Part shown: positions 1,391-61,410 of the stretch, one piece after another
How the letters are laid out: every line of letters starts with the position of its first letter
Position numbering within the stretch: position 1 is the first letter of the stretch
Sequence record: SRR20825010_708
DNA: 63,826 bases
Reading direction: 5' to 3' (one strand)
Translations under genes and position numbers: made by a program
The notes under the pieces: generated by a model
Database searches by the model: none
What the model saw: the letters and a program-made list of their open reading frames with translations, nothing else
What the model was told of the DNA's origin: nothing

Positions 1391-1442
1391 ATAGCAGGCA
1401 AGGAATCCAGAACAAGACCCGATAAGGAAAAGGACCAGGGCC

Positions 1443-4139: not shown

Positions 4140-4148
4140 AAGGAACTT

Positions 4149-5653: not shown

Positions 5654-6541
5654 TTAACTCGTTTCCTTTGGAGTACTGAACTCGTTGATGAGCGCCCCCT
5701 TCACCTTCTGGTCACGCTCGATCTGATTGGTCAGATAATCCGTAATCGCGCCTGTTTCAATCTGGCGCCAGGTGGTGCGCTTGGCCGCGACATGGAACAT
5801 ATTGTGAAGGTAAAGATCCCCCTTCGATTCAAGCTTGGTTCTCGGGCATCGGGACTGCTCGATATCCGAGACCGCACGCACCATCATTTGCACTCCGAGG
5901 CGGACCACTTTTTCATATAGGCTGTTAGGGTGATCACCTTCTTCGATGTGTGGCCGGCCCTGGTATACCACATCGCCATCATCAACCCCCTCAGATACAA
6001 AATGCACAGTGGCCCCAACACACTCCGGCTCGCGATTGTGTATCGCCCAGTCTGTCGTAAACAGACCACGGTAGAACTGGGAGAGCCCCCCATGCAGGTT
6101 GAGGACGCCATATTTCGGAATCGCAAGCAGATCCGCCCTTAAAATTGAGGCACCACAAACGGCAATCACATCAGGCCGCCGGTCTCGAATCCAGGCCAGG
6201 TATTCAGGGTTATTAATCGCATTCACCCCTTGGGTGCGGAGTATTTCGACACCCTCTCCCACCTTCAGAACACGTTCCTCTTCGCCAAAGTCCAGTGAAT
6301 TCGCTGGATCGTTGTAGGGCTGGCGCGGCTCAATAAACCGCCCGTCCATAACCTCCAGAACCTTGCGAAAGAACTGACCGGGCGTAGACAGGTACTTTAT
6401 GGCTTTGGTAGCCAGCGAAGAGCGATCTTTCTCCGGTGTCTGATTTTCAACAACAACACCCACTACGTTCAGGGCCTTGGCCAGCTGATTGGCAAAATAG
6501 ATATCCGACTTGTCAGGACTGACAATCACCAGCGTCCTCAT
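5654..6541 (-). CDS. Stand-alone formyltransferase (Fmt/PurN N-terminal-like fold)
   Basis: LNLHGG (N-x-H) and GATVHFVSEGVDDGDVV motifs of 10-formyl-THF-dependent formyltransferases. Confidence 0.85.
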   Translation of the reverse strand: MRTLVIVSPDKSDIYFANQLAKALNVVGVVVENQTPEKDRSSLATKAIKYLSTPGQFFRKVLEVMDGRFIEPRQPYNDPANSLDFGEEERVLKVGEGVEILRTQGVNAINNPEYLAWIRDRRPDVIAVCGASILRADLLAIPKYGVLNLHGGLSQFYRGLFTTDWAIHNREPECVGATVHFVSEGVDDGDVVYQGRPHIEEGDHPNSLYEKVVRLGVQMMVRAVSDIEQSRCPRTKLESKGDLYLHNMFHVAAKRTTWRQIETGAITDYLTNQIERDQKVKGALINEFSTPKETS

Positions 6542-6545
6542 TGAT

Positions 6546-7682
6546 TCACTCTCCTTTCAGTCCGTCGGGACGGCGGCGTTGTTTGGCGCGTTTCCCCAGA
6601 AAACGCTTTAATACGGGTATGAGTCGGTATTCGAGCAGGTACAACAGATGAAGTTTTGGGCTACTTCCAAAAAGCTCAACGGTGCAATATGACTGGTACT
6701 CTGATGTCCAGTTACTCAGATACCAGTAGTCGTCCGCACAGGTGTAGTACTCTTTTACCAACCCGTTCTCAAATAGTCTCTTCAGTGCCGTGTACTCAAG
6801 AACAGAGCCCGGTGAATAGGCTTTATAAGACTCGTCAAAATCAGCACGTATGGGATAAACAATGTCGTCGTACTTGAGGTGAACTTCGAACGCCACCGGG
6901 CGCTCTCCATCGCGAATGATCCAGGCCGACAACAAACCGGTAGGCCCAAACGATTCGATCAGATTGTGCAGAAACCGGCGACTTCGTTCATTCGAGCGCA
7001 AATCATTGCCAACAGTCGCCTTCCAGCTGTTGGCGGAGATCTCTACCAACTCACGGACGGTGTCCTGATCGGGGCTTGAAATAGTCTCTTCATGGATGGA
7101 AAAGGCGGCATTCTTTCCAAACCGGTTCAGTTTATGGTTGAGGCTTTTCTTCAACTTCCTCGGCCGGGACCGGTAAAAGGCCTCCCACGGTTGGTCAATG
7201 CGAATAACAGGCGTGTAAAGGCTGGGTTTTTCACCGACCCGATTGTGCCCGGGTATCGAGCGGTCCTGCAGAAAGCGCTTCAGGTCACCGCTCTGGTGTA
7301 TCTTGAAGAAGAGGCCGATTTCGTCACAACCTACCTTTGTCAGCAACCCCAACACTGCGTCCCTTTCCCGACCAATCACCGCTGAATCAACGACGATGGA
7401 CGAATAGGGGGTGTGACCGTTGGCCGCAAGCTTCAGGAGTGTTACCGGAACTCCCCGATAACGCTCACGAACCCGAAAAAGTGGCGCAACCCCGACCAAG
7501 GCTCCCTCGATATAGACACACCGGAACTCCAACTGCATATTGATCGAAAAGGCGCGCCACCAAGCCTGCAGCCAAGCATGAGTCAATGGTAGAGGAATAG
7601 GGTCCAGAGTCGACAGCAACTCGTCCCATTGTGGTCTGATCTGGTTGAATGCCTCCTCCGTTCTGATAACTCTTAGTTCCAC
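6546..7682 (-). CDS. GNAT family acyltransferase, CelD/BcsL-like
   Basis: WDELL...WLQAWW N-terminus, LVGVAPL, FDESYKAYSPGSVL motif. Confidence 0.8.
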   Translation of the reverse strand: MELRVIRTEEAFNQIRPQWDELLSTLDPIPLPLTHAWLQAWWRAFSINMQLEFRCVYIEGALVGVAPLFRVRERYRGVPVTLLKLAANGHTPYSSIVVDSAVIGRERDAVLGLLTKVGCDEIGLFFKIHQSGDLKRFLQDRSIPGHNRVGEKPSLYTPVIRIDQPWEAFYRSRPRKLKKSLNHKLNRFGKNAAFSIHEETISSPDQDTVRELVEISANSWKATVGNDLRSNERSRRFLHNLIESFGPTGLLSAWIIRDGERPVAFEVHLKYDDIVYPIRADFDESYKAYSPGSVLEYTALKRLFENGLVKEYYTCADDYWYLSNWTSEYQSYCTVELFGSSPKLHLLYLLEYRLIPVLKRFLGKRAKQRRRPDGLKGE

Positions 7683-7696
7683 AGTATTCGTGTTTC

Positions 7697-8554
7697 CTAA
7701 GCGGCTGCAGACAACTTGTGTTTAACCTTGCGAAGCTGGTCCAGCACATCAATGGCGCGCCGTTTCAGCCAGAAATCAAGCAGTGGTTGTTGTAACCAGT
7801 GCCTGACACGGTTCTGCAGCCAAAAGTAGTTGACCGACACGTTGCGACCTTCCGCTTCAATGAAATGCCAGGTGCCGGCGGGAATAAAAAGTGCCTGCCC
7901 TTCTTCCAGCCAGCCGGTAATGCCCTTTGCATTGCCCAATTTCGGGAATGCCTCCAGGTCCAGCTTCTGGCAGTCGATCTTGCTGTCCACCACCCGATTC
8001 TCCAACAATGCCCGCAAACTGAATGGGCTGTATGGATACATGCAATCGCTTTGATCCGGCGCAAAGAGAATGAATCGTTTGCGCCCTTCCAACATCATCA
8101 GAAGGCTGTGGGTTTCGTCATAGTGCAACAGCGATTTATTTTTCCCGGGCCCAATGTACAGATTCGAGACCCGAAAACGGGATTCAGGCACGAACGCCGG
8201 CAACGTGACCGCAACACTGTTTGGCAGGTCCTCGGAAACACCGCGACCTTTCAGCGGCTCAAGCGCATAGCCATTCCCGGTTGTGCGCATCACCTCATCA
8301 AAATCCGCCATGGGGATGCGCTCGAAGCCCAGATAATGGTAGATGCCGTCTTCTGACTGTCGCTGTATCCGAATGGATTTAAGCGATTCTCTGAAAAAAT
8401 CGTAGTTCCAGTCCCGGATGAACGGCAAAGACTCCTCGATGCCACTCAACAACAAAGGCTGACGACGACGGATATAAGGAAGCAATCCGTCCTGTTCAGT
8501 GGGAAAGGGAATGGTTTTTATGGATTCCGGCCCGGAAAGATCAAATAAACTCAT
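7697..8554 (-). CDS. JmjC/cupin-like Fe(II)/2-oxoglutarate oxygenase
   Basis: SLLHYD...GRKRFILF...LFIPAGTWH (H-x-D...H triad), NVSVNYFW. Start moved from 8698 to ATG 8554 (RBS CAGGAA). Confidence 0.85.
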   Translation of the reverse strand: MSLFDLSGPESIKTIPFPTEQDGLLPYIRRRQPLLLSGIEESLPFIRDWNYDFFRESLKSIRIQRQSEDGIYHYLGFERIPMADFDEVMRTTGNGYALEPLKGRGVSEDLPNSVAVTLPAFVPESRFRVSNLYIGPGKNKSLLHYDETHSLLMMLEGRKRFILFAPDQSDCMYPYSPFSLRALLENRVVDSKIDCQKLDLEAFPKLGNAKGITGWLEEGQALFIPAGTWHFIEAEGRNVSVNYFWLQNRVRHWLQQPLLDFWLKRRAIDVLDQLRKVKHKLSAAA

Positions 8555-8731
8555 CGCGACTTCCTGTTTCAACAATCCACAACGCCCCGCATGAATCGCG
8601 CTAGTTAAGGTGGACCCTGCTTCTACTAATTCCCTGATTACAAAATTACCATATTCCATGGGCAATAAAGCTGCAAGCACTACCATGTGCACTGTCAACA
8701 GACTGGTCCAACCTGATCGATTGCGGGAGAA

Positions 8732-9373
8732 CTAACGTCCTACGTGATCAAACCAGGGCTGTGCCCTACTCACTCTCCACCCCTTGAACGCAACACTGAA
8801 CAATCCCAAACCAAGCGTTCGGACACTGATGTAGGTAAATCCGAACCGGAAGCCCGCCTTGCCCAGAGCCTTCCTGGATGCGCCGTTGTGAGTATCAACC
8901 GCCACGAGTGCCAGGGTCGAGGTAGAGCGATGCACGCTCAAGATCCCATCAAGCAACATCTGGAAGTACCCTAGGCCACGACACTCGGGAATGGTAGCGC
9001 AGTCCCAAATGTAGAACGCCCTATCGGGAACGGTCAGATAAAGGTCGTGTAAAATGCCAATGCAGGTGCCCGGCCCAGCTACCCAGCCCCAGGAAACCAG
9101 TTGGTTATCAACATGCATCTGGAAAAGTCGATTACCCTGGCGGGTGCGACGCAGAAACTCCTGATCAGACACCGGCAACCCGGGTTCTGTTCCGTCAGCC
9201 TCAACAATGCGGGCCGGCGCGATAGAGCTTGCATTCCTCGATAACGCCCCATCGACAACGTGCTGCGAGAGAAAGATACCGGACTTTATCTCAATCAAGC
9301 GGAGAATCCATTGCTTCAGAGGTCGTAAACAACGTTTTTTAACGATGTTTGGAAACAAGGTGTCCTTACTCAT
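8732..9373 (-). CDS. GNAT family N-acetyltransferase
   Basis: YIWDCATIPECRGLGYF acetyl-CoA-binding motif A; N-x-ASRKALGKAGF. Confidence 0.75.
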   Translation of the reverse strand: MSKDTLFPNIVKKRCLRPLKQWILRLIEIKSGIFLSQHVVDGALSRNASSIAPARIVEADGTEPGLPVSDQEFLRRTRQGNRLFQMHVDNQLVSWGWVAGPGTCIGILHDLYLTVPDRAFYIWDCATIPECRGLGYFQMLLDGILSVHRSTSTLALVAVDTHNGASRKALGKAGFRFGFTYISVRTLGLGLFSVAFKGWRVSRAQPWFDHVGR

Positions 9374-9582
9374 ACATTTCCACCGGCATCAGGGTTAACT
9401 AGAAACTGAAAGCTGTTTCAAATTCCATTTCAATCGAAAAGAAAGACTGTTATATTTTTTTAATGATGAAGGATAGCAAAGCCTAAAAGCCATCGACATT
9501 TATGTCCAAGGGTTTTAAAAAAAAGCTGCAGCGCCACTTCATTGGATCTTATAGGTACGATTGTCAAACAGGACGTTTTGTC

Positions 9583-12500
9583 ATGACCGCCAGCAGTAGC
9601 CAACAAACCGTCATCGCCCGTTTTATTGAAGTCGCTCAGCACCACCCCGGTCGCACCGCCGTAGCGTGGCGAGACAATCAGACCTGGAAGAAACTCACCT
9701 ATACCGAATTATTCGACAAAGCCCGGAGGATTGCCAGCGAGTTGGCAAGAGCAGGTGTAGAAGAAGGCTCTTCGGTCATACTTCCGTCAGAAAGACACCC
9801 CGACTTATGCGCCAACTTATTGGGTATACTTTTTTGTGGCGCTCATTACGTATTTATTGACGCTAATTACCCAAAAGAACGTCAACATTTCATCACTGAA
9901 GCTGTATCTGCAAAGTTTGGAATTAATGCTCCTGGATCTGATTTACTTAATCACCTTGATATTTCATGGATAAATACCCGTAATTCCCCGCAAAGTAACG
10001 TGGAAATACCGGATATCCCTGAAAACAGCGAGCGGCCAGCCTATGTCATGTTTACCTCCGGCTCGACCGGAGAGCCTAAGGGTGTGGTGGTACCCGACCG
10101 CGCAATACTTCGGCTGGTCACCAGCACCGATTTCATATCATTTTCACCAGAGCAGACGTTCCTTCAGTTATCAGCCCTGAGTTTCGATGCTTCCACGTTG
10201 GAACTCTGGGGCCCCCTGCTCAATGGTGGCACCTGCGTACTACACCCAGAGACCGGCGTACTGACACCCAACTGCATCCGGGACGTTATCCTGGAGCGTG
10301 ATGTCAGCACTCTATGGCTTACTGCCTCGCTGTTTAACACGTTCATCGCCGAATACCCTGACTACCTCAAGCCTGTTAAACAGTTATTGACAGGAGGCGA
10401 AGCGCTTTCAGTGCCACATGTGAGGAAAGCACTCGAACACCTGCCCAACACTGCCCTGTTCAACGGCTATGGGCCCACCGAGAATACAACGTTTACCACC
10501 GTATTCCCGATACCCAGGCCGCTGCCGGAAGATATCAAGCGAATTCCTATTGGGTTTCCCATTCCCGGTACCCAATGTGCTCTTGTCGATTCAGAGCTGA
10601 ACATTCTAGAGGGTCCAGATCAGACCGGTGAACTCATTGCCTTCGGCGATGGCCTCGCACTGGGTTACCTCAACAGGCCGGAATTGACCGCTGAGAAGTT
10701 CATTCAGGTGAAAGCCAAAGACGGCCGGTCGCGAACCGGCTACAGGACAGGCGATCTGGCGCAACTCAACGACGATGGTAGCTACGATTATTTAGGCAGA
10801 ATAGATAAGCAGGTTAAAATCGACGGGCACCGCATCGAGCCAGGTGAAATCGAGTACCAATTGAACAACCTTGAGTTCGTCACAGAGGCTCGGGTCATTG
10901 TTCGAATTGGACCACAAGGACAGAAACGACTCGCCGCCTACCTGGTGTCGGAATCGGGCTTCAGCACACAATCCGTCCGCCAGGCGTTGGCTGAGGTTGT
11001 CCCGGCCTACATGATTCCACACTTTATTGTCCAGGTGTCCGAATTGCCGAAGAACAAGAACGGCAAACTGGATGAAGCCCGCCTTCCGGACCCATACGCT
11101 ACGGCGCCAAAAGACGCCCCACAGGCCTCCAGAGTCACCAAGGACCGCATCCAGGAAAGCTGGAACACCATACTGAACCGCCCGGTCGAAGATACCGACA
11201 ACTTCATGGATGCCGGCGGCACCTCACTAGAAGCCCTGAAACTGGCAACCCTGCTGGAACGCACCTTTGAGGTTGAGCTCAGTGCCACGTTTGTGTTCGA
11301 GCACCCGACGATCCAGCAGCAAGCGAATTTCTTTGCAACCCGTTCCAATGCTGACGACACTGAAGCATCGGCGCGGCGCGGCGACAGGAACAACAACGAG
11401 TTTGCCATCATTGGCATGGCCTGCCGCTTTCCCGGCGCCAACAATCTGGATGAATACTGGCAGAACCTACTTGCGGGCAAGGAAACCGTCAGTTTCTTTA
11501 CCGATGACGAACTGAGCCCCGACGTCAGTGCAGAAGAACGTTCCAATCCCGCGTATGTAAAAGCCAAGGGTATTGTCGAGGGTTACGACCGCTTTGACGC
11601 CAAGTTCTTTGGTATCTCACCGATAGAAGCCCGGGTGATGGATCCGCAGCAGCGTATTCTCCTGGAACTGAGCTGGCACGCCCTTGAGGACGCCGGCATT
11701 CCTCCGGGCGATGCCCAATACCGCACCGGCGTGTTCGCTGGTATGAACTGGGCTCGTTATTACCAGCAGTATGTTCTGCCAAATAAGGAGATTATTGATA
11801 GCTACGGTGTTCTCAACTGTGGCCTCGCCAACGAGCCCGACCTGCTGAGCACCCGCATCTCCTATAAGTTGAACCTGAAGGGCCCAAGCATCAATGTCTT
11901 TACGGCGTGTTCCACGGGACTCGTCGCAGTGGCACAGGCCTGTGAAGCGATCGACAACGGCCAATGTGAGCAAGCCATCGCCGCAGGTGTGTCCATCTCA
12001 ACGCCAGTGAAGCGCGGGTACGCCTACCAGGAAGGCAGCATGCTCTCGAAAGACGGCCATTGCAGGCCTTTCGACCAGGACGCCACGGGAACCACGTTCA
12101 ACGACGGTGCCGGCGCCATCGTCCTGAAACGTCGAGACCTGGCGGAACGGGATGGCGACACTATCTACGCCGTCATCAAAGGCTATGCAGTAAATAACGA
12201 CGGCGAACAGAAGGCCAGCTTCACCGCACCCAGTGTGGCCGGCCAAGTGGCTGTTTATAAGGATGCCCTTGCCCGCGCTGCCATCGAACCTTCCTCCGTG
12301 GGTTTCATAGAAACCCACGGCACTGCGACGCCCCTGGGCGACCCCATTGAAGTGTTGTCACTGAGGCGCTGTTATTCCTCAGAGAATACCCGGGAGAAAA
12401 CCTGCGCGATCGGTTCTGTTAAATCCAACATCGGGCACGCCATCCATGCCGCCGGCCTGGCTAGCCTGATTAAATCCACTCTGGCCGTCCGTGACAACAA

Positions 12501-15500
12501 GATACCGCCCACATTGTTTTTCCAGACCGCAAACCCGAAGCTGGAGCTGGAGAAGTCCCATTTCTATGTCAATACGGCAGTGGAGGCCTGGAAGTTGCCC
12601 TCCCCCCGCCGGGCGGCGGTTACCTCTCTTGGTGTGGGCGGTACCAATGCCCACGTCATCCTGGAGGAATACGTTCCCGGACAGGCGCCCGAGCTGCCTA
12701 AAGAGATCACTCCAGAGCGCCGTTTCCCGATACTGCTATCGGCCAAGAGCAAGCCCTCACTGGAGCGACAAATCGCCCGGTATTGCGACTACTTCAGCAA
12801 CCGGAAGGATGCCCTGCTGCCGAATGTGTCCCATACCTCGATCCACGGTCGCAAGCACTTCGATCATCGGGCGATCGTGTTCGGCGGTGACCTGCCCTCC
12901 GCCATGGAGAATCTCGGCCAGGGTGTATCCTTCGCCAAGGGCCAGGCTGGTAACAACCCCAACCAGAGTGTCGGTTTTATGTTCTCTGGCCAGGGTACCC
13001 AGGCCAGACATATGGGCAAGTGGCTGTATGAGAACGCCAGCTCTTATCGGGAGACCTTTGATCGCGGTTGCAAGATCGTACTGAAAACCAGTGGGGTGGA
13101 CATACGCGGCATCCTGTTCGCCGAAGGCGACCAGAACGCCGATGACAATCTGGTCAACCAGACTTCCTTCGTGCAACCGGCCCTGTTCCTGCTCGAATTC
13201 GGACTGGCAAACTACCTGAAAGAGCATGGCGTTGCGCCCTCGTTTCTGATCGGGCACAGCATTGGCGAATTCGCCGCCGCTGCCCTTGCAGGCATCTTCA
13301 GTTTTGAGGACGCCGTGGCTCTGGTTGCCACCCGGGGCGCCCTCATGCAAAGCATGCCGGCCGGAAAAATGCTCATTGTGCGGTCAAACCCGGATGACAT
13401 CGAAGAACTCGTTGGCCAGCGGGCTGAGGTGGCTGCGGTGAATGCGCCTGGCCTTATGGTGCTCTCGGGTGAGCAGGAGGCCATCAAGGCGATCTCCGCC
13501 GAATTGTCCGAGCGGAAGATCGCCAGCACTATCCTGCAGACCAGCCATGCGTTCCACTCGTCGATGATGGACCCCATTGTTCCCGAGTTCGAAGCATTCG
13601 TATCCACGATTCAACGGCAGGCGCCCTCCATCCCTATCTATTCAACCATGACGGGCGCACTGCTGACGGATGAGGAGGCGATGTCGCCCCGGTACTGGTC
13701 GCAACAGCTCAGGAACCCGGTGCTGTTTTCCAGCGCGTTGCAGGCTCTCAGCCTTCGTCATGAAAACGATGGCGAACGAATCAGTCTCCTGGAAGTCGGG
13801 CCCGGCAACACCCTGGTCAACCTGGCGAATAGCCACCGGGAGCTTGAAGGTATTCACGCCTATCCCGCTCTCACCAACAAGGGCACCGACGAGAACGCGG
13901 AAGATGACATTTACCGCAGTATTGGCCAGCTCTGGGTCGATGGGCACGCCCTGGACTGGAACCGTTACTTTGAGGGGCTGTGGGTTTGCAAGGAACGGCT
14001 CCCGGGCTACGCGTTCTCGGACGACTCGTTCTGGCTCGGCCCGGTCAACAACGACCCCGCAAACATGACCAACAGCGTCGCCCCTTCAACGGCGGCAGCT
14101 TCGCAACTGTCTCATCTGGCTAATCCGGCAACCCCGGTTACACAGGACGTTAAAATGGACTCAAAACAGCATTCCGAAAAAATCCGCGCCGATGTCATGG
14201 CCATCATTGAAGACGTGTCGGGGTATGAACTGGGCGACGCAGACCCGGCCTCACACTTCAGTGAGGTTGGTCTGGATTCGTTGTTGCTTACCCAGGTCGC
14301 GACTGCATTGGAGCGGCAGTTTAAACTCGGGATCACATTCAGACATCTTGTGGAAGAATACACCTCCCTGGAATTGATCTCGGAGTTCATTGCCTCCCAG
14401 GTTGAGCCCGAGGTCGTCACCCAGGCCGCACCACCGTCTCAGGAGGCAGCTGGTCAGCCTCAGCCTGCTGATGGCAGCCAAATGTCCATGCCCTCCGGTG
14501 TTGATTTCAGCACTGCAATGCCCACTTCCGGTGGCCTTATACAGGATATCGTGAATGCGCAGTTGCAGATTATGCAGATGCAACTTCAGGCCCTTGGGCG
14601 ACAGGGGGCTTCAACGGCGCAGAGTGTTCCGCAAACCCAACAGGCAGCCGCATCCACGCCAGCGCCCGCTGCTGCTGCAAACAAGGAACGGGCAAGCGCC
14701 AACGAGAGCGCCGACGACACACCCAGTAAACCGGCCCACACCCCTGGCACTCGTATCACACGGGAGAAAACCAATACCGAAGTCACCTCCGCACAGCGGG
14801 AATGGATTGACCGGTTGATGACGAAATACCAGGAAAAATACGCAGGGTCCAAGAGCTACACGCAGAAGCACAGGAAACACCTGGCCGATCCGAGAAGTGT
14901 TTCCGGCTTCAATCCGGGCTGGAAAGAAGTCATTTTCCCGATTGTCACAGTGGAGTCGAAAGGATCGAAACTCTGGGATATCGACGGCAACGAGCTTATT
15001 GATACCTCCAACGGCTTCGGCCCGATTCTGTTCGGGCATTCACCGGACTTCATTTCCAACGCTGCTAAGGCCCAGATTGACCGCGGCGTGGAAACCGGTC
15101 CGCAATCCCCATTGGCGGGAGAAGTCGCTGAACTCTTCTGTGAACTTACAGGTAATGAGCGATGCACCTTTGCCTGTACAGGCTCTGAGGCAAACGTGGG
15201 CGCTCTCCGGGTTGCCCGCACGGTCACCGGGCGCACCAAGGTCGTGGCGTTCGAAGGCTCCTACCACGGCATTCACGATGAAGTGGTCATGCGGGTCGGT
15301 AAAGACCACAAGGCTCTTCCCGCCGCACCAGGAGTGCCCAGGGAAGCAACCTCAAACATGATACTCCTGCCCTGGGGCGAGCAGAGCAGCCTGGATGAGA
15401 TCCGAAAACTGGGTGACGAGATCGCCGCTGTACTGGTGGAACCGGTGCAAAGCAGGAAGCCCCAGTTCCACAGCAAGGAATACATCCAGGAAATCCGCAG

Positions 15501-16272
15501 GATTACGAAAGAAAACGGCGTCGCGCTGATCCTCGATGAGGTAGTGACCGGCTTCCGCGTTGGCCCCGGCGGTATTCGCAAACGCTTCGATGTTGATGCC
15601 GACATGATGACCTACGGCAAGGTCGTCGGCGGCGGCTATCCCATCGGCATTATCGCCGGCAAAGCCAAGTACCTGGACGCGATGGACGGGGGCTATTGGG
15701 AGTTTGGCGATGATTCCATCCCCGAGCAGGGTGTGACCTTCTTCGCCGGAACCTTTGTGCGGCACCCGCTGGCCCTGGCAGTTGCCAAAGCGGTACTTAC
15801 CAAGATCAAGGAAGACGGCGATTCGATTTACCCGGCGCTGGAAGAAAAAACCACCGCCATGGCGAGGGAAGCCAAGGCCTTCATCGAGCAACTGAAGTCC
15901 AATGTCAGCTTCGAGGAGTTTGCCTCGCTGTTCTACATTTCCATTCCCCCGACGTCTCATTGGGGGCACCTGTTGTTCCTGTCGATGACGCTCGACGGCA
16001 TCCACATCCAGCAGTACCGTCCAAACTTCCTGACAACCCAGCACTCCACCGAAGATGTGAAGAAAATACTGCAGGCGTTCAAGTCGGCCCTGGCGAACCT
16101 CATCGTCAACGGCCTGCTCGAGGGCGACCAAGTGGCGGCCAAGAAGTATCTGAGTGGCAACAGCAGCATTCCCGCAGGTGCCAGGCTGGGAAAAAATGAG
16201 AAAGGAGAGCCCGCTTACTTCATTGAAGACCCTGACAATAAAGGCGCATATGTGGAGGTGGGCCGCCCATGA
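9583..16272 (+). CDS. Hybrid NRPS-PKS: A-T-KS-AT-ACP-class III aminotransferase
   Basis: A: YVMFTSGSTGEPKG, NGYGPTE, YRTGD, LPKNKNGK. T: AGGTSL. KS: TACSTG, HGTATPLGDPIE, SNIGH. AT: GHSIGE, HAFHS. ACP: GLDSL. Aminotransferase: LILDEVVTGFR, TYGKVVGGG. Start placed at ATG 9583 (RBS AGGA) rather than 9502. Confidence 0.95.
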   Translation: MTASSSQQTVIARFIEVAQHHPGRTAVAWRDNQTWKKLTYTELFDKARRIASELARAGVEEGSSVILPSERHPDLCANLLGILFCGAHYVFIDANYPKERQHFITEAVSAKFGINAPGSDLLNHLDISWINTRNSPQSNVEIPDIPENSERPAYVMFTSGSTGEPKGVVVPDRAILRLVTSTDFISFSPEQTFLQLSALSFDASTLELWGPLLNGGTCVLHPETGVLTPNCIRDVILERDVSTLWLTASLFNTFIAEYPDYLKPVKQLLTGGEALSVPHVRKALEHLPNTALFNGYGPTENTTFTTVFPIPRPLPEDIKRIPIGFPIPGTQCALVDSELNILEGPDQTGELIAFGDGLALGYLNRPELTAEKFIQVKAKDGRSRTGYRTGDLAQLNDDGSYDYLGRIDKQVKIDGHRIEPGEIEYQLNNLEFVTEARVIVRIGPQGQKRLAAYLVSESGFSTQSVRQALAEVVPAYMIPHFIVQVSELPKNKNGKLDEARLPDPYATAPKDAPQASRVTKDRIQESWNTILNRPVEDTDNFMDAGGTSLEALKLATLLERTFEVELSATFVFEHPTIQQQANFFATRSNADDTEASARRGDRNNNEFAIIGMACRFPGANNLDEYWQNLLAGKETVSFFTDDELSPDVSAEERSNPAYVKAKGIVEGYDRFDAKFFGISPIEARVMDPQQRILLELSWHALEDAGIPPGDAQYRTGVFAGMNWARYYQQYVLPNKEIIDSYGVLNCGLANEPDLLSTRISYKLNLKGPSINVFTACSTGLVAVAQACEAIDNGQCEQAIAAGVSISTPVKRGYAYQEGSMLSKDGHCRPFDQDATGTTFNDGAGAIVLKRRDLAERDGDTIYAVIKGYAVNNDGEQKASFTAPSVAGQVAVYKDALARAAIEPSSVGFIETHGTATPLGDPIEVLSLRRCYSSENTREKTCAIGSVKSNIGHAIHAAGLASLIKSTLAVRDNKIPPTLFFQTANPKLELEKSHFYVNTAVEAWKLPSPRRAAVTSLGVGGTNAHVILEEYVPGQAPELPKEITPERRFPILLSAKSKPSLERQIARYCDYFSNRKDALLPNVSHTSIHGRKHFDHRAIVFGGDLPSAMENLGQGVSFAKGQAGNNPNQSVGFMFSGQGTQARHMGKWLYENASSYRETFDRGCKIVLKTSGVDIRGILFAEGDQNADDNLVNQTSFVQPALFLLEFGLANYLKEHGVAPSFLIGHSIGEFAAAALAGIFSFEDAVALVATRGALMQSMPAGKMLIVRSNPDDIEELVGQRAEVAAVNAPGLMVLSGEQEAIKAISAELSERKIASTILQTSHAFHSSMMDPIVPEFEAFVSTIQRQAPSIPIYSTMTGALLTDEEAMSPRYWSQQLRNPVLFSSALQALSLRHENDGERISLLEVGPGNTLVNLANSHRELEGIHAYPALTNKGTDENAEDDIYRSIGQLWVDGHALDWNRYFEGLWVCKERLPGYAFSDDSFWLGPVNNDPANMTNSVAPSTAAASQLSHLANPATPVTQDVKMDSKQHSEKIRADVMAIIEDVSGYELGDADPASHFSEVGLDSLLLTQVATALERQFKLGITFRHLVEEYTSLELISEFIASQVEPEVVTQAAPPSQEAAGQPQPADGSQMSMPSGVDFSTAMPTSGGLIQDIVNAQLQIMQMQLQALGRQGASTAQSVPQTQQAAASTPAPAAAANKERASANESADDTPSKPAHTPGTRITREKTNTEVTSAQREWIDRLMTKYQEKYAGSKSYTQKHRKHLADPRSVSGFNPGWKEVIFPIVTVESKGSKLWDIDGNELIDTSNGFGPILFGHSPDFISNAAKAQIDRGVETGPQSPLAGEVAELFCELTGNERCTFACTGSEANVGALRVARTVTGRTKVVAFEGSYHGIHDEVVMRVGKDHKALPAAPGVPREATSNMILLPWGEQSSLDEIRKLGDEIAAVLVEPVQSRKPQFHSKEYIQEIRRITKENGVALILDEVVTGFRVGPGGIRKRFDVDADMMTYGKVVGGGYPIGIIAGKAKYLDAMDGGYWEFGDDSIPEQGVTFFAGTFVRHPLALAVAKAVLTKIKEDGDSIYPALEEKTTAMAREAKAFIEQLKSNVSFEEFASLFYISIPPTSHWGHLLFLSMTLDGIHIQQYRPNFLTTQHSTEDVKKILQAFKSALANLIVNGLLEGDQVAAKKYLSGNSSIPAGARLGKNEKGEPAYFIEDPDNKGAYVEVGRP

Positions 16273-19200
16273 GTTCCGCCAGCTTCAATCCGTTCGCCGG
16301 TGGTGAACTGTTGCGGGTTGCTCCCGCAACAGGGCCGCAAAGGGAAATCATCGCCTCTGCCCAGCTTAGCGACGTTGCCAACACCGCCTTTAACGAGGCC
16401 GTATCCGTTAAGCTTTCCGGCAACCTTGATGTCAATCTGCTCCGCCAGTGTTTTGATGACCTTATCGCAAAGCACGATATTCTGAGGGCAACGTTTTCCA
16501 GGAACGGCACGGAAATCTGCCTGCACGACACCTCCACATTCCAACTGGAGGTGGAAGACCTCAATGGCGGCACTCCGAGCGAACAGGAAGCTGCCATTAG
16601 AGATCTCTGGAAGAACATCGCCATCTCCCCCATGAATCTGGAGGAAGGCCCTCTCCTGTTCGCATGGCTGATGAAGCTCGACAGCAACACCCACGAACTG
16701 GTTCTGGCCGCCCATCATATTGTCTGTGACGGCTGGTCAATCGGACTGATGCTGACCGAACTGGCCGAATCCTATGGCAGTCAACGCGCTCAATCGGACG
16801 ACAGCGGAGCGGATATCTCCTTCTTCGATTACGCGGAAATGGTGGATTCCAAAGAAATCAGCAACATCGACAACGACTACTGGATCGATCGTTTTGCCGA
16901 AGTGCCGCCAAACCTGGACCTGCCCCTGGATTACCCGCGGCCCCATTTTCGAACCTTTGAGGCGACGCGGCTGGATTACCGGATAGACCCGGAGCTTGCC
17001 AAACGCCTGCCCAAGGCAGCCGCCGCTATGAAAGTCAGCATGGTGAACATGGTGTTGGCGAGCTATTTTGTGCTGCTGCATCGCCTGACATCCAGCGACG
17101 ACATCGTGGTGGGGCTCCCCGTTGCAGGCCAGGCCACACAGAACCGACTGAAGCAAGTTGGCCACATGGTTCACCTGCTGCCAATCCGGGCCCAACTGAC
17201 CCCGGACACGCGGTTTTCTGAGCTGTGCAAACAGGTCAAGTCCGAAGTGCTCAATGCCTCCGAGCATTCAAACTTCACGTTCGGCAAGCTCATAGAAGCG
17301 ATCAACGTCGACCGCACCCGTGTTCCGCTGATCAATACCATTTTCAACATCGATCAGCCCCTGGAGTCCATCCAGTTCGGCGATATAGAAGGCAAAGTCC
17401 GGACCGTGCCCCGCGCAGCGGAGAACTTCGAGATGTTCCTGAACATCCTGCCGTCGTCCGACAGCCTCACCATCGAAGCCACTTACTCCACGGCATTGTT
17501 CAGCGAGGCCACCATCGTGTCCTGGCTTGAGGCCCTGGAAAGGATACTGGCGACCGCCACGGCGGATGTTGAGATTGCCGTGGGTAGCATTGCCCTCGCG
17601 GAACAGGAACCGAACGTGGTTCAGCGCGCCAACGACACCCAGCGCGACATGCCCCATGGAACGGTCATCGACGCCCTGCAGCACCATGTCTCAGCCACGC
17701 CCGATGCCTTCGCATGCGCGTTCGGTGACCGTAGCTGGACCTACCAGCAGCTCGATGAACGCAGTAATGCCGTGGCCGCCAGCCTTGCCAACCAAGGTAT
17801 TGCGGCCGGCAACACGGTGGCGGTCTGTGTCGAGCGCTCGGACGCTGCCCTGGCCGCTATTGTCGGCATCCTCAAGCTGGGTGCGATTTACCTGCCCCTG
17901 GACCCGGACTTTCCGGAGGCTCGATTGCAGTACATGATTGAGGACTCGGAAGCTTCCGCTGTCATCGTCGACTCACAGACGCCTGCGGCCATCGCCGGCG
18001 TGAACCTCCTCAAAGTCGATATCAATGAGGCAATTGAACCGGCGTCAGCCGAAGCGTCCCCCGTGCCACCGGTAAGAATCGACCCGGAGCAAACGGCCTA
18101 TATTATCTACACCTCCGGCTCCACCGGAAAACCCAAGGGCGTGCTGGTTCCTCACCGGGCTCTGATTAACTTTCTTGAGAGCATGTCGGACAAACCCGGT
18201 TGCACAGCCAATGACCGGCTTCTGGCGGTCACCACCTTCTCCTTCGACATCTCCTTCCTGGAGCTTTTGTTACCCCTGACTCAGGGCGCCACAACCGTGA
18301 TCGCCGACAAGGACAGCGTAAAGGACGGTGAAAAACTGCGCCGGCTGATTCTCGATCACCAGATATCAATCATGCAGGCAACCCCGGCAACCTGGCGCAT
18401 GCTGCTGGATACCGACTGGCGGCAGGATGGGGTCAGGATGAAGGGGCTCTGTGGCGGGGAACCACTGCCCCAGGATCTGGTGCGGGATCTGCTCGGGTGC
18501 CTGGACGAACTGTGGAATATGTATGGTCCGACGGAAACCACCGTCTGGTCCACTTGCCACCCATTGCGCCTGACCGACAAACTGATCTCCATCGGCAAAC
18601 CTATCCACAATACCCAGGTGCACATTCTTGACCGGGAACGCAATCCGGTGCCCCTGTCCTGCCCTGGCGAGCTGTACATCGGCGGCCTTGGGCTGGCAAC
18701 GGGCTACCACAATCGGCCCGATCTCACCTCAGAGAAGTACATTGACCATCCCCTCCACGGAAGGCTGTATGCCACCGGAGATCTGGCGAAATGGACTCCC
18801 GATGGCAACCTTCAGCATCTGGGCCGCATGGACGATCAGGTGAAGGTTCGCGGCTACCGCATTGAATTGGGTGATATTGAGTCCGCCCTCGCCGCCTGCG
18901 CTGACATTAAATCCGCCTGCGCGTATGTCTGGGAACTGGCACCGGGCGACGCACGCATCGTTGGCTGTGTGGTTTCGGAATCCGGAGACGTGCCCAATGT
19001 GGTGAGCATCCGCAAGGAACTTCGAAAACTGCTACCAGCGTACATGATCCCTCAATACATCATTGCCATCGATAGCATACCCCTGAGCCCTAGCGGCAAG
19101 ATGGACCGGCGGCGCCTGCCCAAACCGGAACTTCGAGAGTCCAGTATTCTCAAGGCCTCCGCCTTGGCAAACCAGACCGAAGAGATGATTGCCGATGTCT

Positions 19201-20774
19201 GGTCCGACGTACTCAATTCCAAGTCCCGGATTGTACGCGAGGACAACTTCTTCAGCCTGGGCGGGCACTCATTGCTCGCGCTGCAGGCCATCCGCAGGAT
19301 AGAGAGCCAGACCGGCATCAAACTGACCCCGGAAGACATCGTCGGGCTCAGCCTGAGTGAAATCGCCGAGAAAGTCTCCCACAGCACGCCGGCCTCCGCC
19401 GGGCACGAAGACTCACCGGCGGATCTGCCCACGGCCCAGCGGCGCTTGCTGAGCCATGAACAGACCCGGCTGCTGCTGCGGCAGCTGTCCTACCCGGACA
19501 ACGTGTGTAACAACCTGCCCGCGTCCTGGTTCCTCGAAGGCAACCTTGATATTGATACGTTCACCCGTAGCCTGATCAAGGTTTTCGAGCGCCAGACCGC
19601 GCTGCGAACGGTCATTACCCAGGTGGATAGCCGCTACCAGCAAGGCATCCTGCCAGTGAAGCAGGTCCCCGTACTCGATGTTGTGGACCTAACCGGCGAG
19701 GATAACCCCGAGCAAACGGCGCTGAAACGCTCACGGGACCTGGCGTTCAAACCCTTCAAGGTGCTCGACCGGCCGCTGTTCCGCTCCACGCTGTTTGTGC
19801 TGGGCGATGCCCGCTACCACTACGTGTTCGTGCCACATCAACTGGTCTTCGATGGCTGGTCGTTTGATATCTTCCTCAAGGAACTGGAGGACGCCTATCT
19901 GGTACAAAGCAATACGGAACGGGAAAAAGCCAACAAACTGGCGTTCGAGTTCCGGGATTACGCTGAGTGGTCAATTGAAAAAGGTGCGTCGACAGAGGAT
20001 GTCGATTACCACAGGGCCAAGATTGCCGGCGTCCTGGAATCCGAGGCCCGCGAGAACGAGAACTACGGCAAACCCAACCAATGTGCCCGGGAGACCCTGA
20101 ACTTCCCGGAAGCAAGCCTGGCGATGGTGGAAAAGGTGGGTAATGAACTCGGGCTCAAACTTCACGAGATCCTGTTCTGCCTGTTCGCGGAGACCATCTC
20201 CCGGTCGCACAAAGACAACCGTATTGTGCTTGGCGTGCCCACGTCCGGCCGTCAACGCGCCGACGTGATCAACCTGATTGGTAGCTTTGTGACCACCATT
20301 CCCTGTTTGCTTCAGGCGCCATCGTCCAGCTTCCGGGAGCGCATTGCCAGCCTGAGCGACCAACTCAGGGAAACACTGGACCATCAGACGGTGACCTACG
20401 CTGATATCGTCCGTAACACGCCTGCCGAGAGGGAGCTGTTTCCGGAGTTTGTCCAGGCCAGCTTTGCTTTTCAGGACATCCGCAACCGGCCAACCTCCAT
20501 TGCCGACCTGGCGCTCAGGCAACTGGACCTGCCCCGGCTGAACACCGAATACCCGGTGGAGTACTGGGTGCGGATCCAGCCTGGTGGTTTCATTGGCGTG
20601 TTTGACTACAACGAGGCTTCTGTTGATTCAGAGACGGTACAGTCGCTCAAGGAGACCTTTGCCGGACTTGTTGCGGACCTTGAAAGACTTATCAATGAGG
20701 TGCCCTCAGAACCAAGCCAGTCAAAAACACCGGTCGCCAAGAAGCCGTTCTGGAGGAAGCTGTTTCAGTCATGA
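16269..20774 (+). CDS. NRPS: C-A-T-C (terminal C with variant active site), no thioesterase
   Basis: C1 HHIVCDGWS; A: YIIYTSGSTGKPKG, NMYGPTE, YATGD; T: LGGHSL; C2 HQLVFDGWS. ATGA overlap with the upstream gene. Confidence 0.95.
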   Translation: MSSASFNPFAGGELLRVAPATGPQREIIASAQLSDVANTAFNEAVSVKLSGNLDVNLLRQCFDDLIAKHDILRATFSRNGTEICLHDTSTFQLEVEDLNGGTPSEQEAAIRDLWKNIAISPMNLEEGPLLFAWLMKLDSNTHELVLAAHHIVCDGWSIGLMLTELAESYGSQRAQSDDSGADISFFDYAEMVDSKEISNIDNDYWIDRFAEVPPNLDLPLDYPRPHFRTFEATRLDYRIDPELAKRLPKAAAAMKVSMVNMVLASYFVLLHRLTSSDDIVVGLPVAGQATQNRLKQVGHMVHLLPIRAQLTPDTRFSELCKQVKSEVLNASEHSNFTFGKLIEAINVDRTRVPLINTIFNIDQPLESIQFGDIEGKVRTVPRAAENFEMFLNILPSSDSLTIEATYSTALFSEATIVSWLEALERILATATADVEIAVGSIALAEQEPNVVQRANDTQRDMPHGTVIDALQHHVSATPDAFACAFGDRSWTYQQLDERSNAVAASLANQGIAAGNTVAVCVERSDAALAAIVGILKLGAIYLPLDPDFPEARLQYMIEDSEASAVIVDSQTPAAIAGVNLLKVDINEAIEPASAEASPVPPVRIDPEQTAYIIYTSGSTGKPKGVLVPHRALINFLESMSDKPGCTANDRLLAVTTFSFDISFLELLLPLTQGATTVIADKDSVKDGEKLRRLILDHQISIMQATPATWRMLLDTDWRQDGVRMKGLCGGEPLPQDLVRDLLGCLDELWNMYGPTETTVWSTCHPLRLTDKLISIGKPIHNTQVHILDRERNPVPLSCPGELYIGGLGLATGYHNRPDLTSEKYIDHPLHGRLYATGDLAKWTPDGNLQHLGRMDDQVKVRGYRIELGDIESALAACADIKSACAYVWELAPGDARIVGCVVSESGDVPNVVSIRKELRKLLPAYMIPQYIIAIDSIPLSPSGKMDRRRLPKPELRESSILKASALANQTEEMIADVWSDVLNSKSRIVREDNFFSLGGHSLLALQAIRRIESQTGIKLTPEDIVGLSLSEIAEKVSHSTPASAGHEDSPADLPTAQRRLLSHEQTRLLLRQLSYPDNVCNNLPASWFLEGNLDIDTFTRSLIKVFERQTALRTVITQVDSRYQQGILPVKQVPVLDVVDLTGEDNPEQTALKRSRDLAFKPFKVLDRPLFRSTLFVLGDARYHYVFVPHQLVFDGWSFDIFLKELEDAYLVQSNTEREKANKLAFEFRDYAEWSIEKGASTEDVDYHRAKIAGVLESEARENENYGKPNQCARETLNFPEASLAMVEKVGNELGLKLHEILFCLFAETISRSHKDNRIVLGVPTSGRQRADVINLIGSFVTTIPCLLQAPSSSFRERIASLSDQLRETLDHQTVTYADIVRNTPAERELFPEFVQASFAFQDIRNRPTSIADLALRQLDLPRLNTEYPVEYWVRIQPGGFIGVFDYNEASVDSETVQSLKETFAGLVADLERLINEVPSEPSQSKTPVAKKPFWRKLFQS

Positions 20775-20790: not shown

Positions 20791-21534
20791 ATGATAGAAC
20801 CTTTTTTCTTTGATAACAGCCGCCTGTTCGGCTGCTATTCGTCTGCGACGGACCCCAATGCAGAAAAAGTCGTGGTTGTGTGCCCACCGCTTTTTGACGA
20901 GTACCGGCGCACTTACCGGGCCTTGTCGGAATTGTCCGTGGCCATTTCCGAGCGCGGGAATCATGCGTTTCGCTTCGACTACTACGGAACAGCAGAATCC
21001 CAGGGACTGTTGTCGGAGGCAACCATAGAAGTCTGGTTGTCCGATATCCAAAAAGCGATTGATGAAGCCATCGCTGTCTCCGGTGCCAACCATGTGGTGT
21101 TATTGGGCGTGCGGTTTGGTGCAACACTGGCGGCACAAATTAACCATGCATCCGTAAAGGAATTCCTTTTCTGGGATCCAGTGCTGTCCGGAGAACGCTA
21201 CGTTGAGTGGCTGAATGAGATCGATGCCATCCTGCGCAAGCGGCATCAGTCAGCGGCACGCGAGAACAATGTTCCCTTCGAAAACATAGAGTACAGGAAC
21301 TTCGACCTTCCCTCAGGGCTGGTAACCGGCATACGCGAACTGGCTATTCCCGAGAGTACCCTGAACAACCCCGACCTGTGCTTCACCGTCTCAACCGATC
21401 CGGAATTCTGCAAAAGCTCAGGACTAAGCAACTGCGCCTATCCCGGCCTCAGCTACGATTGGCCGTATTACCACGACGGCGTAATCACCCAGAAACCGGT
21501 ACTCGAAGCATTACTGGACAGGGTATTCGCATGA
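20791..21534 (+). CDS. Alpha/beta hydrolase-fold protein resembling exosortase A system-associated hydrolase 2
   Basis: RFDYYGTAES, elbow LLGVRFGATLA (G-x-R-x-G, no Ser), LFWDPV. Confidence 0.75.
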   Translation: MIEPFFFDNSRLFGCYSSATDPNAEKVVVVCPPLFDEYRRTYRALSELSVAISERGNHAFRFDYYGTAESQGLLSEATIEVWLSDIQKAIDEAIAVSGANHVVLLGVRFGATLAAQINHASVKEFLFWDPVLSGERYVEWLNEIDAILRKRHQSAARENNVPFENIEYRNFDLPSGLVTGIRELAIPESTLNNPDLCFTVSTDPEFCKSSGLSNCAYPGLSYDWPYYHDGVITQKPVLEALLDRVFA

Positions 21535-22379
21535 TCAAGGAACGGATATTCACCTATGGGGAACACCAGCACGGCATTGGCGTTCTCTCCGAGCCTGAAG
21601 ACACCTTCAACAGCCCCATTGTGGTGCTGCTGAACGCCGGCCTGTCCCACCGGGCGGAGCCCTATCGGCTGAATGTACTGCTCGGCCGCCAACTCGCGGA
21701 ACTGGGTTATATCGCGTTGCGGGTGGACCTGTCTGGCAAGGGGGACTCCCCAGCCCACGAAACCATGACCAACCGGGAATCAGTGGCCCTCGACTGGTCA
21801 TTCATGAAGAAATCCCTCGAAAAGCTCTATGGCTCCAGGCCCCTGCTGATCTTCGGTTTGTGTTCAGGTGCCGACAACGGCATCAAACTCTGCGCCCAGG
21901 ACCCATCCATCAAGGGGCTTATCCTTCTGGACCCGGTGTCCCGGCAGGACGAAGGTTTCGCGAAGCGAGAACTGCTCCGGAAGCTGACAAACCCTAACAA
22001 GTGGTTGAATATCCATAAAATTGTCTCCCGCAGGCTGAAACAGAACACCAGCGGTGAACACTCGCTGCTTAGCTCCCCCATGGACTTGCGGGATGAGCCC
22101 AATGAAGACGATATGGACCGTTGCTTCGAGAGCCTGGTGGAAAAAGATGGCCGGGTGTTCGCCGTGTTTACCAGCCAAACCCTCTACCACTACAACAAGC
22201 TTGGCCAGTTCGCCTCTGCCATGGACATCAAAGGCCTTGAACCCATTATCGAGGAAGTCTTCTGGCCCAATGCCAAGCACATCTTCTCCATCGAAGTGCA
22301 CCGACAACGCCTGATCGGCACCATTACAGACTGGGCCAATAAACAACTGGATCACTTGAAGACCCTGAAACCGGAATGA
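21531..22379 (+). CDS. Alpha/beta hydrolase-fold protein resembling exosortase A system-associated hydrolase 1
   Basis: LRVDLSGKGDS, elbow FGLCSGAD, late His (AKHIF). True start at ATG 21531 overlapping the upstream stop (ATGA). Confidence 0.75.
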   Translation: MIKERIFTYGEHQHGIGVLSEPEDTFNSPIVVLLNAGLSHRAEPYRLNVLLGRQLAELGYIALRVDLSGKGDSPAHETMTNRESVALDWSFMKKSLEKLYGSRPLLIFGLCSGADNGIKLCAQDPSIKGLILLDPVSRQDEGFAKRELLRKLTNPNKWLNIHKIVSRRLKQNTSGEHSLLSSPMDLRDEPNEDDMDRCFESLVEKDGRVFAVFTSQTLYHYNKLGQFASAMDIKGLEPIIEEVFWPNAKHIFSIEVHRQRLIGTITDWANKQLDHLKTLKPE

Positions 22380-25049: not shown

Positions 25050-25140
25050 GTAACCCTTCGGTCCGCGTTCCGTCCAATTGACGGCTTTCTGCGGTCTACC
25101 TATAATTTTTTTACGCCATCCCGAGTAGGAGCAGGCGAGC

Positions 25141-44467: not shown

Positions 44468-44469
44468 CA

Positions 44470-50114: not shown

Positions 50115-50147
50115 TACGCTATCCTTAAAGAATTCCCTAAACAACGA

Positions 50148-57893: not shown

Positions 57894-57909
57894 TGCAGTT
57901 GTCGTGCCA
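57894..57909 (-). promoter_or_regulatory. sigma54 -24/-12 promoter (TGGCACGACAACTGCA)
   Basis: Near-consensus TGGCACG-N4-(T/C)TGCA; IHF-like AAACAATAACTTA at 57927-57939. Confidence 0.85.
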
Positions 57910-58771: not shown

Positions 58772-58787
58772 TGCATAAGACGTGCCA
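58772..58787 (-). promoter_or_regulatory. sigma54 -24/-12 promoter (TGGCACGTCTTATGCA)
   Basis: TGGCACG-N4-ATGCA; IHF-like TTTCAGTCAGTTA at 58806-58818. Confidence 0.85.
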
Positions 58788-60380: not shown

Positions 60381-60492
60381 GGCGAATCCCTTATTGGTTT
60401 TGGATCTCAGTGAGAGACTAAGAACGAAAAACAGTCATGCCAAACAGGTTAGTACATCGGCCCGGCCGGGATACAGCCATCCAGATCTTAAG

Positions 60493-60509
60493 CGTTGACT
60501 TTTTATACA
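60493..60509 (+). promoter_or_regulatory. Candidate PrsR enhancer box (CGTTGACTTTTTATACA)
   Basis: 17-bp (C/T)GT-N11-ACA resembling the other boxes, ~75 bp upstream of the sigma54 site. Confidence 0.45.
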
Positions 60510-60584
60510 CTTTTCAATGCCTCACCGGTGACCAGAGCATTCAGAAAATGGCAACCGGCTGTTTTAACCGAAAAATATCCAAGC

Positions 60585-61399: not shown

Positions 61400-61410
61400 G
61401 TAGAGCGCTT

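Follow-up and report, generated by a model that had tools for sequence, protein, structure and literature searches.

Among the closest described systems to the assembly line considered here is MycA of the Bacillus mycosubtilin/iturin systems, which has the order AL-ACP-KS-AT-ACP-AMT-C-A-T (AL, fatty-acyl-AMP ligase; ACP, acyl carrier protein; KS, ketosynthase; AT, acyltransferase; AMT, aminotransferase; C, condensation; A, adenylation; T, carrier domain) and reportedly converts a β-keto group to a β-amine on the carrier. A stretch of 63,826 nucleotides from sequence record SRR20825010_708 (the window; the whole of the DNA that was analyzed) encodes in two adjacent genes, ORF1 and ORF2, a hybrid nonribosomal peptide synthetase-polyketide synthase (NRPS-PKS) with the same KS-AT-ACP-AMT-C order. 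Like MycA, it has a malonyl-type AT, a homologous AMT, and no reductive domains, and the same conversion of β-keto to β-amino on the carrier would be expected. The two differ in that the loader here is an amino-acid A domain with a valine-type code rather than a fatty-acyl-AMP ligase, the product would be a β,γ-diamino acid rather than a β-amino fatty acid, and the line ends after one glycine, without a thioesterase (TE), in a polysaccharide locus. Despite its MycA-like β-amination cassette, the line falls outside the lipopeptide synthetases, since an amino-acid A domain serves as its loader.

Other described systems share parts of this chemistry. Statine-type modules (A-T-KS-AT-KR-ACP; KR, ketoreductase) likewise combine an amino-acid starter with one malonate, but here an aminotransferase takes the place of the KR and an amine rather than a hydroxyl is expected. 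In the BioF/BioA steps of biotin synthesis, a class-III (PF00202) aminotransferase turns 8-amino-7-oxononanoate into 7,8-diaminononanoate, and thus an α-amino ketone into a vicinal diamine, although the biotin steps use free substrates and a PLP-dependent Claisen enzyme, with no KS and no carriers. N-acyl amino acid synthases have reportedly been linked to PEP-CTERM systems by Craig et al. in 2011. The exosortase A (XrtA) set comprises TIGR03098 (ligase), an ACP, TIGR03099 (decarboxylase), TIGR03100 (hydrolase 1), and TIGR03101 (hydrolase 2), and resembles the locus studied here in that a hydrolase 2/1 pair stands beside a carrier-loading enzyme in an XrtA locus; it differs in that the pair in the window falls below both family cut-offs, a 3700-residue NRPS-PKS replaces a simple ligase, and no decarboxylase was found. 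Lines of similar layout have been described as predictions. Protein C6XWU5 of Pedobacter heparinus (A-CP-KS-AT-CP-PLP1, predicted Nrp-Mal-Gly; Milano et al. 2013, PMC3870968) has the domain layout of ORF1. According to a 2024 genome-mining study, Pseudanabaena galeata OA858_07105 has a putative Val specificity, malonyl extension (GHSI/HAFH), and β-amination by an AMT (PMC11356792), so the inference of Val, malonyl, and AMT is already in print for a cyanobacterial relative; that line differs in its N-terminal C domain, extra modules, and TE. The portions seen of both papers give predictions only and mention neither the hydrolase pair nor exosortase loci. Our literature searches found no characterized product of the family and no paper connecting it to exosortase loci; 3,4-diamino-5-methylhexanoic acid did not turn up as a natural product either.

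We propose, with moderate confidence, that ORF1 and ORF2 form a colinear, TE-less NRPS-PKS for a diamino-acyl-glycine that is released by the adjacent hydrolase pair hyd2/hyd1 and used in a surface polymer rather than as a free antibiotic. A1 would charge T1 with L-valine or with a branched-chain amino acid very similar to it, and the KS would join valyl-T1 and malonyl-ACP2 to give 4-amino-5-methyl-3-oxohexanoyl-ACP. The in-line MycA-type aminotransferase would turn the 3-ketone into an amine, giving a 3,4-diamino-5-methylhexanoyl unit that C1 would couple to T3-bound glycine. From the position of a release domain, hyd1 (with a Cys nucleophile) and hyd2 (with an Arg elbow) would then unload the acyl-glycyl thioester. 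Because the cassette sits in the slot of the XrtA locus that canonically holds the acyl ligase, ACP, decarboxylase, and hydrolases 1/2, the product would more likely be a small cationic unit for the surface-polymer system than an antibiotic. Domain order, catalytic residues, codes, conservation, fusions, and locus context can be read directly, whereas we infer the substrates, amination of the carrier-bound chain, a product with both amines free, the releasing enzyme, and the acceptor.

The codes of the two A domains are of valine and glycine type. Stachelhaus positions were anchored on the core motifs FDxS, xLPP, LxTxGE, NxYGPTE, and NGK, with what we take to be their GrsA numbering, and on alignment to solved NRPS chains. 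This gives D229 A230 L233 W272 L296 G298 G322 T330 F331 K522 for A1 (DALWLGGTFK) and DILQLGMVWK for A2, in each case the ten residues that an earlier note on this DNA had reported. A1 scores 345.4 bits against NCBIfam TIGR01733 (amino-acid adenylation; cut-off 317.4), which makes it an amino-acid A domain rather than a fatty-acyl ligase, and its closest solved relatives are NRPS A domains. Among the best 120 relatives of ORF1 listed from a search of 5.8 billion proteins, 76 are in the length class 2100-2320 aa, and 71 of these have the A1 code DALWLGGTFK (62) or DAFWLGGTFK (9); the remaining five have DAWQFGLINK (2), DLLWLGGTFK, DALWIGGTFK, and DLLWIGGTFK (1 each). Such conservation exceeds what chance would give. 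One of the two main codes is present in 108 of all 121 rows (query included), some of which are long fused proteins whose best match is a second A domain. The valine-type code persists down to ∼45-50% A-domain identity. Eight related genomes within the order agree with this: a valine-type code is present in the first A domain of all seven in which it is covered, and the second A domain reads DILQLGMVWK in seven of eight. Retention of the A1 code in 71 of 76 homologues, together with a MycA-type AMT, makes valine plus malonate, β-amination, and glycine the best sequence-level reading, with an α-amino-acid A domain of valine-type code as the loader and an A2 code of glycine type. In PMC3870968, antiSMASH-type predictions for relatives in architecture give Gly.

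The elongating and aminating parts of ORF1 have their catalytic residues. Pfam places AMP-binding at residues 43-522, PP-binding at 548-610, KS at 634-1006, AT at 1159-1418, and Aminotran_3 at 1812-2116, and the KS is of the elongating type. In an alignment of 15 sequences (42-77% identity), the AT motifs GHSIGE/HAFHS, the KS residues C803/H939/H979, the carrier serines S575 and S1593, and K2040 of the AMT are invariant. Between AT and AMT, a second scan at E<=1 returned PP-binding only, with no KR and no dehydratase (DH). The malonyl-type AT (GHSIG/HAFH), intact KS Cys-His-His triad, and lack of KR/DH that had been claimed before are thus all present as described. Over its last 496 residues, ORF1 matches the structure of the MycA AMT from mycosubtilin synthase (6kfm, E 1.6e-118, across residues 2-445 of the 496; it is also matched as 6kfu), whereas glutamate-1-semialdehyde aminomutases match far less well, at about 1e-50. 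No other part of ORF1 is as well conserved as the AMT, with 68-72% identity where ORF1 as a whole has 51-56%, and the C1 domain downstream of it has an intact HHIVCDG. ORF1 likely starts at M28 (ATG at 9583, with AGGAC just before it), and a 2229-aa database protein with the source name Marinobacter salarius is 100% identical to ORF1 from that position. ORF1 and ORF2 are translationally coupled, and Pfam finds in ORF2 a Condensation domain, AMP-binding at 470-944, PP-binding at 974-1028, and a second Condensation stretch.

The order of valine, malonyl extension, transamination, and glycine set out in the earlier note therefore agrees, in each step that can be read from sequence, with the valine-type code, the elongating KS, the malonyl AT, the missing reductive domains, the match to 6kfm, HHIVCDG in C1, and an A2 code kept in seven of eight genomes. 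Its interval, 10180-18555, is correctly placed from the A1 motif FDAS (residue 227) to the A2 motif TVW (residue 763), but it stops before the A2 lysine (19086) and includes neither T3 and the terminal C domain nor any downstream gene. The account was incomplete in that it passed over the lack of a TE, the HQ motif at the end of ORF2, the Cys/Arg pair of hydrolases, and the exosortase/polysaccharide context, and these are the features that probably decide the purpose of the unit.

Release is predicted to depend on the hydrolase pair. Pfam scans found no thioesterase family in ORF1 or ORF2, and ORF2 ends in a domain of condensation fold (E 9.8e-52) whose motif HQLVFDG has, on alignment, Gln in place of the second His found in bacitracin synthase 3. 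At this position five of seven close homologues also have Gln (G221, G150, G028, G038, and G323), and the other two have NQ (G001) and HH (G351); HH is retained in seven of seven more distant homologues. An A-type stretch follows the equivalent C domain in G351, L008, and L041, with a glycine-type code in G351 and L041. Within ORF2, conservation is lowest in the terminal C domain (33-40% identity, compared with 46-50% for the whole protein), whose second-best PDB match is 8z0q, a "special condensation domain." This domain could be what is left of a third module, could serve in docking, or could release the chain by a changed chemistry.

The two hydrolases are distant paralogues (hhalign probability 98.7%) in which the elbow Cys of hyd1 aligns to the Arg of hyd2, and both are related by sequence to the exosortase A hydrolase 1/2 families. 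Residues C111, S112, D134, and H250 of hyd1 are invariant; hyd2 retains R108, and its alignment contains no invariant His. The elbow residue is Cys in 26 of 27 aligned hyd1 segments, the odd row being a cross-match to a hyd2 gene, and Arg in 22 of 23 hyd2 segments, with one locus present twice in each count (L002 = G001). The predicted structure of hyd1 is an alpha/beta hydrolase (pLDDT 90.8), and Foldseek matches its model to generic lipases/esterases at a TM of about 0.56, which confirms the fold and does not narrow the function; PDB sequence searches with hyd2, hyd1, and the JmjC-like protein encoded farther downstream gave generic or very weak matches only. A profile search with hyd2 yielded 3044 representative clusters at E<=1e-30. 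The best 150 representatives include 11 hyd2-hyd1 fusions and one further protein with the pair twice, and in six of seven larger hyd2-family proteins that were scanned, a C-terminal hyd2-like domain lies directly behind the last NRPS/PKS carrier. These fusions and positions support a role for the pair in unloading, and we suggest that hyd2/hyd1 work as a release module. hyd2 and hyd1 follow ORF1 and ORF2 in six of the eight related Pseudomonadales genomes, and the pair is present in 14 of 35 fetched loci showing an AMT; several of the loci without it are cut by contig ends or are longer cyanobacterial lines.

Positions 17 to ∼57842 are one complete XrtA/PEP-CTERM polysaccharide locus with the cassette in its middle. 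Besides the genes at its head, the locus includes XrtA-system glycosyltransferases, an O-antigen-ligase-like TIGR03097 gene, a FemAB-family TIGR03019 gene, a TIGR03006 deacetylase, a tyrosine kinase, a chain-length determinant, an export protein, and a priming transferase (TIGR03013), and one of its proteins ends in VPEP, a hydrophobic helix, and RRRK. No scanned window ORF of at least 150 aa matched the TIGR03098 ligase or the TIGR03099 decarboxylase above cut-off; the window A domains score 156 and 221 bits against TIGR03098, for which the cut-off is 592. In four of five canonical XrtA genomes, the contig with XrtA also carries, at a distance of 31-43 kb, hydrolase 2 and the TIGR03098 ligase, which are separated from each other by 2-11 kb. 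With neither canonical enzyme found among the scanned ORFs of the window and the NRPS-PKS cassette in that slot, the cassette looks like an elaborated substitute for the canonical ligase/ACP/decarboxylase/hydrolase set.

Table 1. Features of the NRPS-PKS cassette and its surroundings, with positions in the window, and proteins of the hyd2 family that are informative for release
Feature	Position	Strand	Remarks
PEP-CTERM-box response regulator, PrsT, exosortase A-EpsI fusion	17..5648	+	XrtA 4149-5648; head of locus
Divergent genes: formyltransferase-like, FemAB-like (Acetyltransf_6), Cupin_8, GNAT	5654..9373	-	cassette membership uncertain
ORF1, hybrid NRPS-PKS, A1-T1-KS-AT-ACP2-AMT	9502..16272	+	2256 aa from 9502
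A1 adenylation domain	9628..11067	+	code DALWLGGTFK; D229 and K522 present
T1 carrier domain	11143..11331	+	GGTS575L
Ketosynthase	11401..12519	+	C803/H939/H979
Acyltransferase, malonyl type	12976..13755	+	GHSIGE (1251), HAFHS (1349)
ACP2	14194..14391	+	GLDS1593L; sole domain between AT and AMT
Class-III PLP aminotransferase domain	14785..16116	+	K2040; MycA AMT homologue
ORF2, NRPS, C1-A2-T3-terminal C	16269..20774	+	1501 aa; start overlaps ORF1 stop by 4 bases
C1 condensation domain	16320..17606	+	HHIVCDG intact (16713)
A2 adenylation domain, glycine type	17676..19100	+	code DILQLGMVWK
T3 carrier domain	19188..19352	+	GGHSL
Terminal condensation-fold domain	19446..20678	+	HQLVFDG for HHxxxDG; no A domain after
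hyd2, alpha/beta-fold, Arg at nucleophile elbow	20791..21534	+	GVRFG; weak TIGR03101 match
hyd1, alpha/beta hydrolase, Cys at nucleophile elbow	21531..22379	+	GLCSG; weak TIGR03100 match; ATG overlaps hyd2 stop
CocE/NonD-family (S15) hydrolase	22376..24190	+	beside 0 of 8 related cassettes
TIGR04325-family methyltransferase	24228..25049	+	beside 4 of 8 related cassettes
JmjC/cupin-type protein	25141..26109	+	beside 6 of 8 related cassettes
hyd2-hyd1 fusion proteins, one with the pair twice			P0136, P0137, P0148, P0152, P0160, P0166, P0201, P0223, P0225, P0251, P0258, P0261
hyd2-like domain behind terminal carrier			P0170, P0204, P0207, P0222, P0252, P0256; e.g. C-A-T-hyd2, KS-AT-T-hyd2, KR-ACP-hyd2

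Several points weigh against a released diamino-acyl-glycine destined for a surface polymer. The hydrolases fall below the cut-offs of the exosortase families (hyd1, 66 against 168.45 for TIGR03100; hyd2, 80.4 against 202.75 for TIGR03101), and the terminal C domain, which keeps HH in distant relatives, could be the releasing catalyst instead of the pair. The relatives P0067 and the Pseudanabaena line have an N-terminal C domain, which implies that the amine is acylated in some lines. One cassette (G323) is separated by over 1 Mb from both XrtA-like genes of its genome, and four of 25 AMT-bearing genomes have no XrtA-like match. A free γ-amino-β-ketoacyl thioester can lactamize to a tetramic acid before amination. 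DALWLGGTFK itself is presumably a Val code and DILQLGMVWK is what we take to be the canonical glycine code; neither string was found in the main texts searched, nor did the literature searches yield biochemical data on any family member.

The cassette could be an ordinary secondary-metabolite cluster that merely came to lie in a variable polysaccharide locus and whose small-molecule product is secreted and plays no part in the XrtA system, an alternative that we consider possible. Beyond the distant cassette of G323, it is consistent with cyanobacterial and other relatives being longer lines without the hydrolase pair. The recurrence of the cassette bears on this directly. In 401 genomes sampled evenly across the order, whose assemblies are incomplete, matches to the AMT line (E<=1e-80) occur in 25 and XrtA-like genes (E<=1e-30) in 142. 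Of the 25 genomes with the AMT line, 21 have an XrtA-like gene (Fisher one-sided p = 3.6e-7), a statistic that ignores relatedness and to that extent leaves room for an unrelated cluster. The two are on one contig and no more than 45 kb apart in six of 25 genomes (G036, G038, G150, G168, G262, and G351), and the proximity is seen again in lines whose AMT is only 45-47% identical (G168, G262, and G036), which argues against an unrelated cluster. So do the hallmark XrtA-system genes on both sides of the cassette in the window and a hydrolase pair that is paralogous to the pair defining canonical XrtA loci. PrsT and the regulator adjoin the cassette in G001 and G351. Thus, the link between cassette and XrtA is frequent, not obligatory.

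The core chemistry could be the same and yet yield no free vicinal diamine, because the Val amine is capped (by a formyl, acyl, or aminoacyl group) or because the chain is cyclized to a lactam such as a seven-membered diazepanedione. We consider this doubtful, but the free 3,4-diamino product named in the earlier note is itself a prediction, one that presumes an unmodified Val amine and an uncyclized chain. Formyltransferase-like, FemAB-like, and GNAT genes lie divergently upstream and would be candidates for capping. However, none of the four divergent genes is beside any of the eight related cassettes (close Marinobacter relatives are outside this set), and ORF1 has neither a starter C domain nor a formylation (F) domain. 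Cyclization is favored by the lack of a TE domain and by an elbow Cys rather than Ser in hyd1; ObiF and SulM are ring-forming off-loading systems with Cys-type release enzymes. It is also compatible with the pattern in more distant loci. These retain KS-AT-ACP-AMT, C-A(Gly), and the hydrolase pair while the first A domain code varies: six have DVQFVAHVVK or close variants and two have DFWNIGMVHK, which we take to be proline-type and threonine-type, respectively. The starter code is therefore exchanged among relatives while glycine and the hydrolase pair stay, and a glycine kept beside proline- or threonine-type first domains fits a need for an unhindered last residue. Against this, the sequence does not distinguish cyclization from hydrolysis or transfer.

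A1 may instead take a similar amino acid (isoleucine, allo-isoleucine, 2-aminobutyrate, or a hydroxylated valine), which would change the side chain; this is unlikely. Ten-residue codes separate Val from Ile unreliably, and two JmjC/cupin-type genes are nearby, both points in favor of another substrate. DAFWLGGTFK is tabulated as Val in PMC9113097, and DALWLGGTFK equals it in nine of ten residues, the exception being L rather than F at position 239. Position 239 is a further point in favor of another substrate, but L and F replace each other freely at this position in orthologues whose codes are otherwise the same.

It is very improbable that the AMT is inactive on the carrier-bound 3-oxo intermediate and serves some other role while a β-keto product or 5-isopropyl tetramic acid is released: lactamization of the γ-amino-β-ketoacyl thioester is chemically easy, but the AMT is conserved more strongly than the rest of ORF1, keeps its PLP lysine and many other invariant residues, matches the MycA AMT end to end, and is always followed by a C domain with intact HHxxxDG.

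If the proposed diamino-acyl-glycine pathway is correct, it would define a route to β,γ-diamino acids from an amino-acid starter, one malonate, and an in-line transaminase, a route for which the literature searched holds neither a natural product nor a tested enzyme. The exosortase A "hydrolase 1/2" pair would gain a role in unloading carrier-bound acyl chains, a mechanism that the 3044 hyd2-family clusters predict to be widespread, and small-molecule chemistry would be tied to the PEP-CTERM/exosortase system. Genetics should be feasible in a non-pathogenic marine bacterium. A further suggestion, which we regard as speculative and quite improbable, is that the hydrolase pair grafts the diamino-acyl-glycine onto a polysaccharide or lipid carrier and that its free amines, perhaps extended by FemAB-type enzymes, are the long-sought acceptor nucleophile of exosortase A for PEP-CTERM proteins; a parallel is the Fem-built glycine bridge used by sortase. 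Two FemAB-type genes are present in the locus, the divergent Acetyltransf_6 member at 6546-7682 (-) and the canonical TIGR03019 gene at 48801-50144 (-).

Other features of the locus and its relatives bear less directly on the pathway. A locus search of genome contigs returned two loci above 50% identity among the matches listed. In G351, a second assembly line lies directly upstream of the ORF1 homologue (L101 7098-19966, -) and consists of an A domain that includes a luciferase-like monooxygenase part, a T domain, a separate KS, and AT-KR-T, followed by two hyd2/hyd1 pairs. cDNA contigs (four libraries of one study; 95-99% alike to the window) cover most of 9.7-22.9 kb and single contigs span the ORF1/ORF2 and ORF2/hyd2 junctions; because DNA carry-over is possible, transcription is not taken as proven. 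Most of 22.9-26.5 kb is uncovered, which is uninformative. Scans for sigma-70 promoters and terminators were at chance level; within that limit, the best regional sigma-70-like match (11/12) is at 25078-25106 (+), just before the JmjC-like gene, which may have its own promoter. A window-wide scan for sigma-54 -24/-12 elements with up to two mismatches (to what we take to be the consensus) gave 75 matches compared with 71.7 expected, and there was none on the + strand of the intergenic region 9374-9582; the scan gave no evidence of control of ORF1 by the PEP-CTERM regulator. Sigma-54-like -24/-12 elements with one mismatch are at 57895-57909 (-) and 58773-58787 (-), just upstream of the genes at 57159-57842 and 57992-58720, respectively. 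The former (-) encodes a 227-aa protein ending in VPEPGTLALFGLGLLGLGMTRRRKSA, a textbook PEP-CTERM sorting signal.

Among the glycosyltransferase genes of the locus, a PaaK/F390-synthetase-like AMP ligase is encoded at 38967-40352 (-), and two adjacent ATP-grasp-like genes are at 43292-45642 (+); these offer further amide-forming chemistry. Between 34000 and 44000, G+C is 0.41-0.48, compared with ∼0.55 elsewhere. This stretch spans Wzx-like, glycosyltransferase, and O-antigen-ligase-like genes and could be a variable segment of the locus that is exchanged horizontally. The end of the locus is marked by prpD and prpF of the methylcitrate cycle at 58896-63810 (-).

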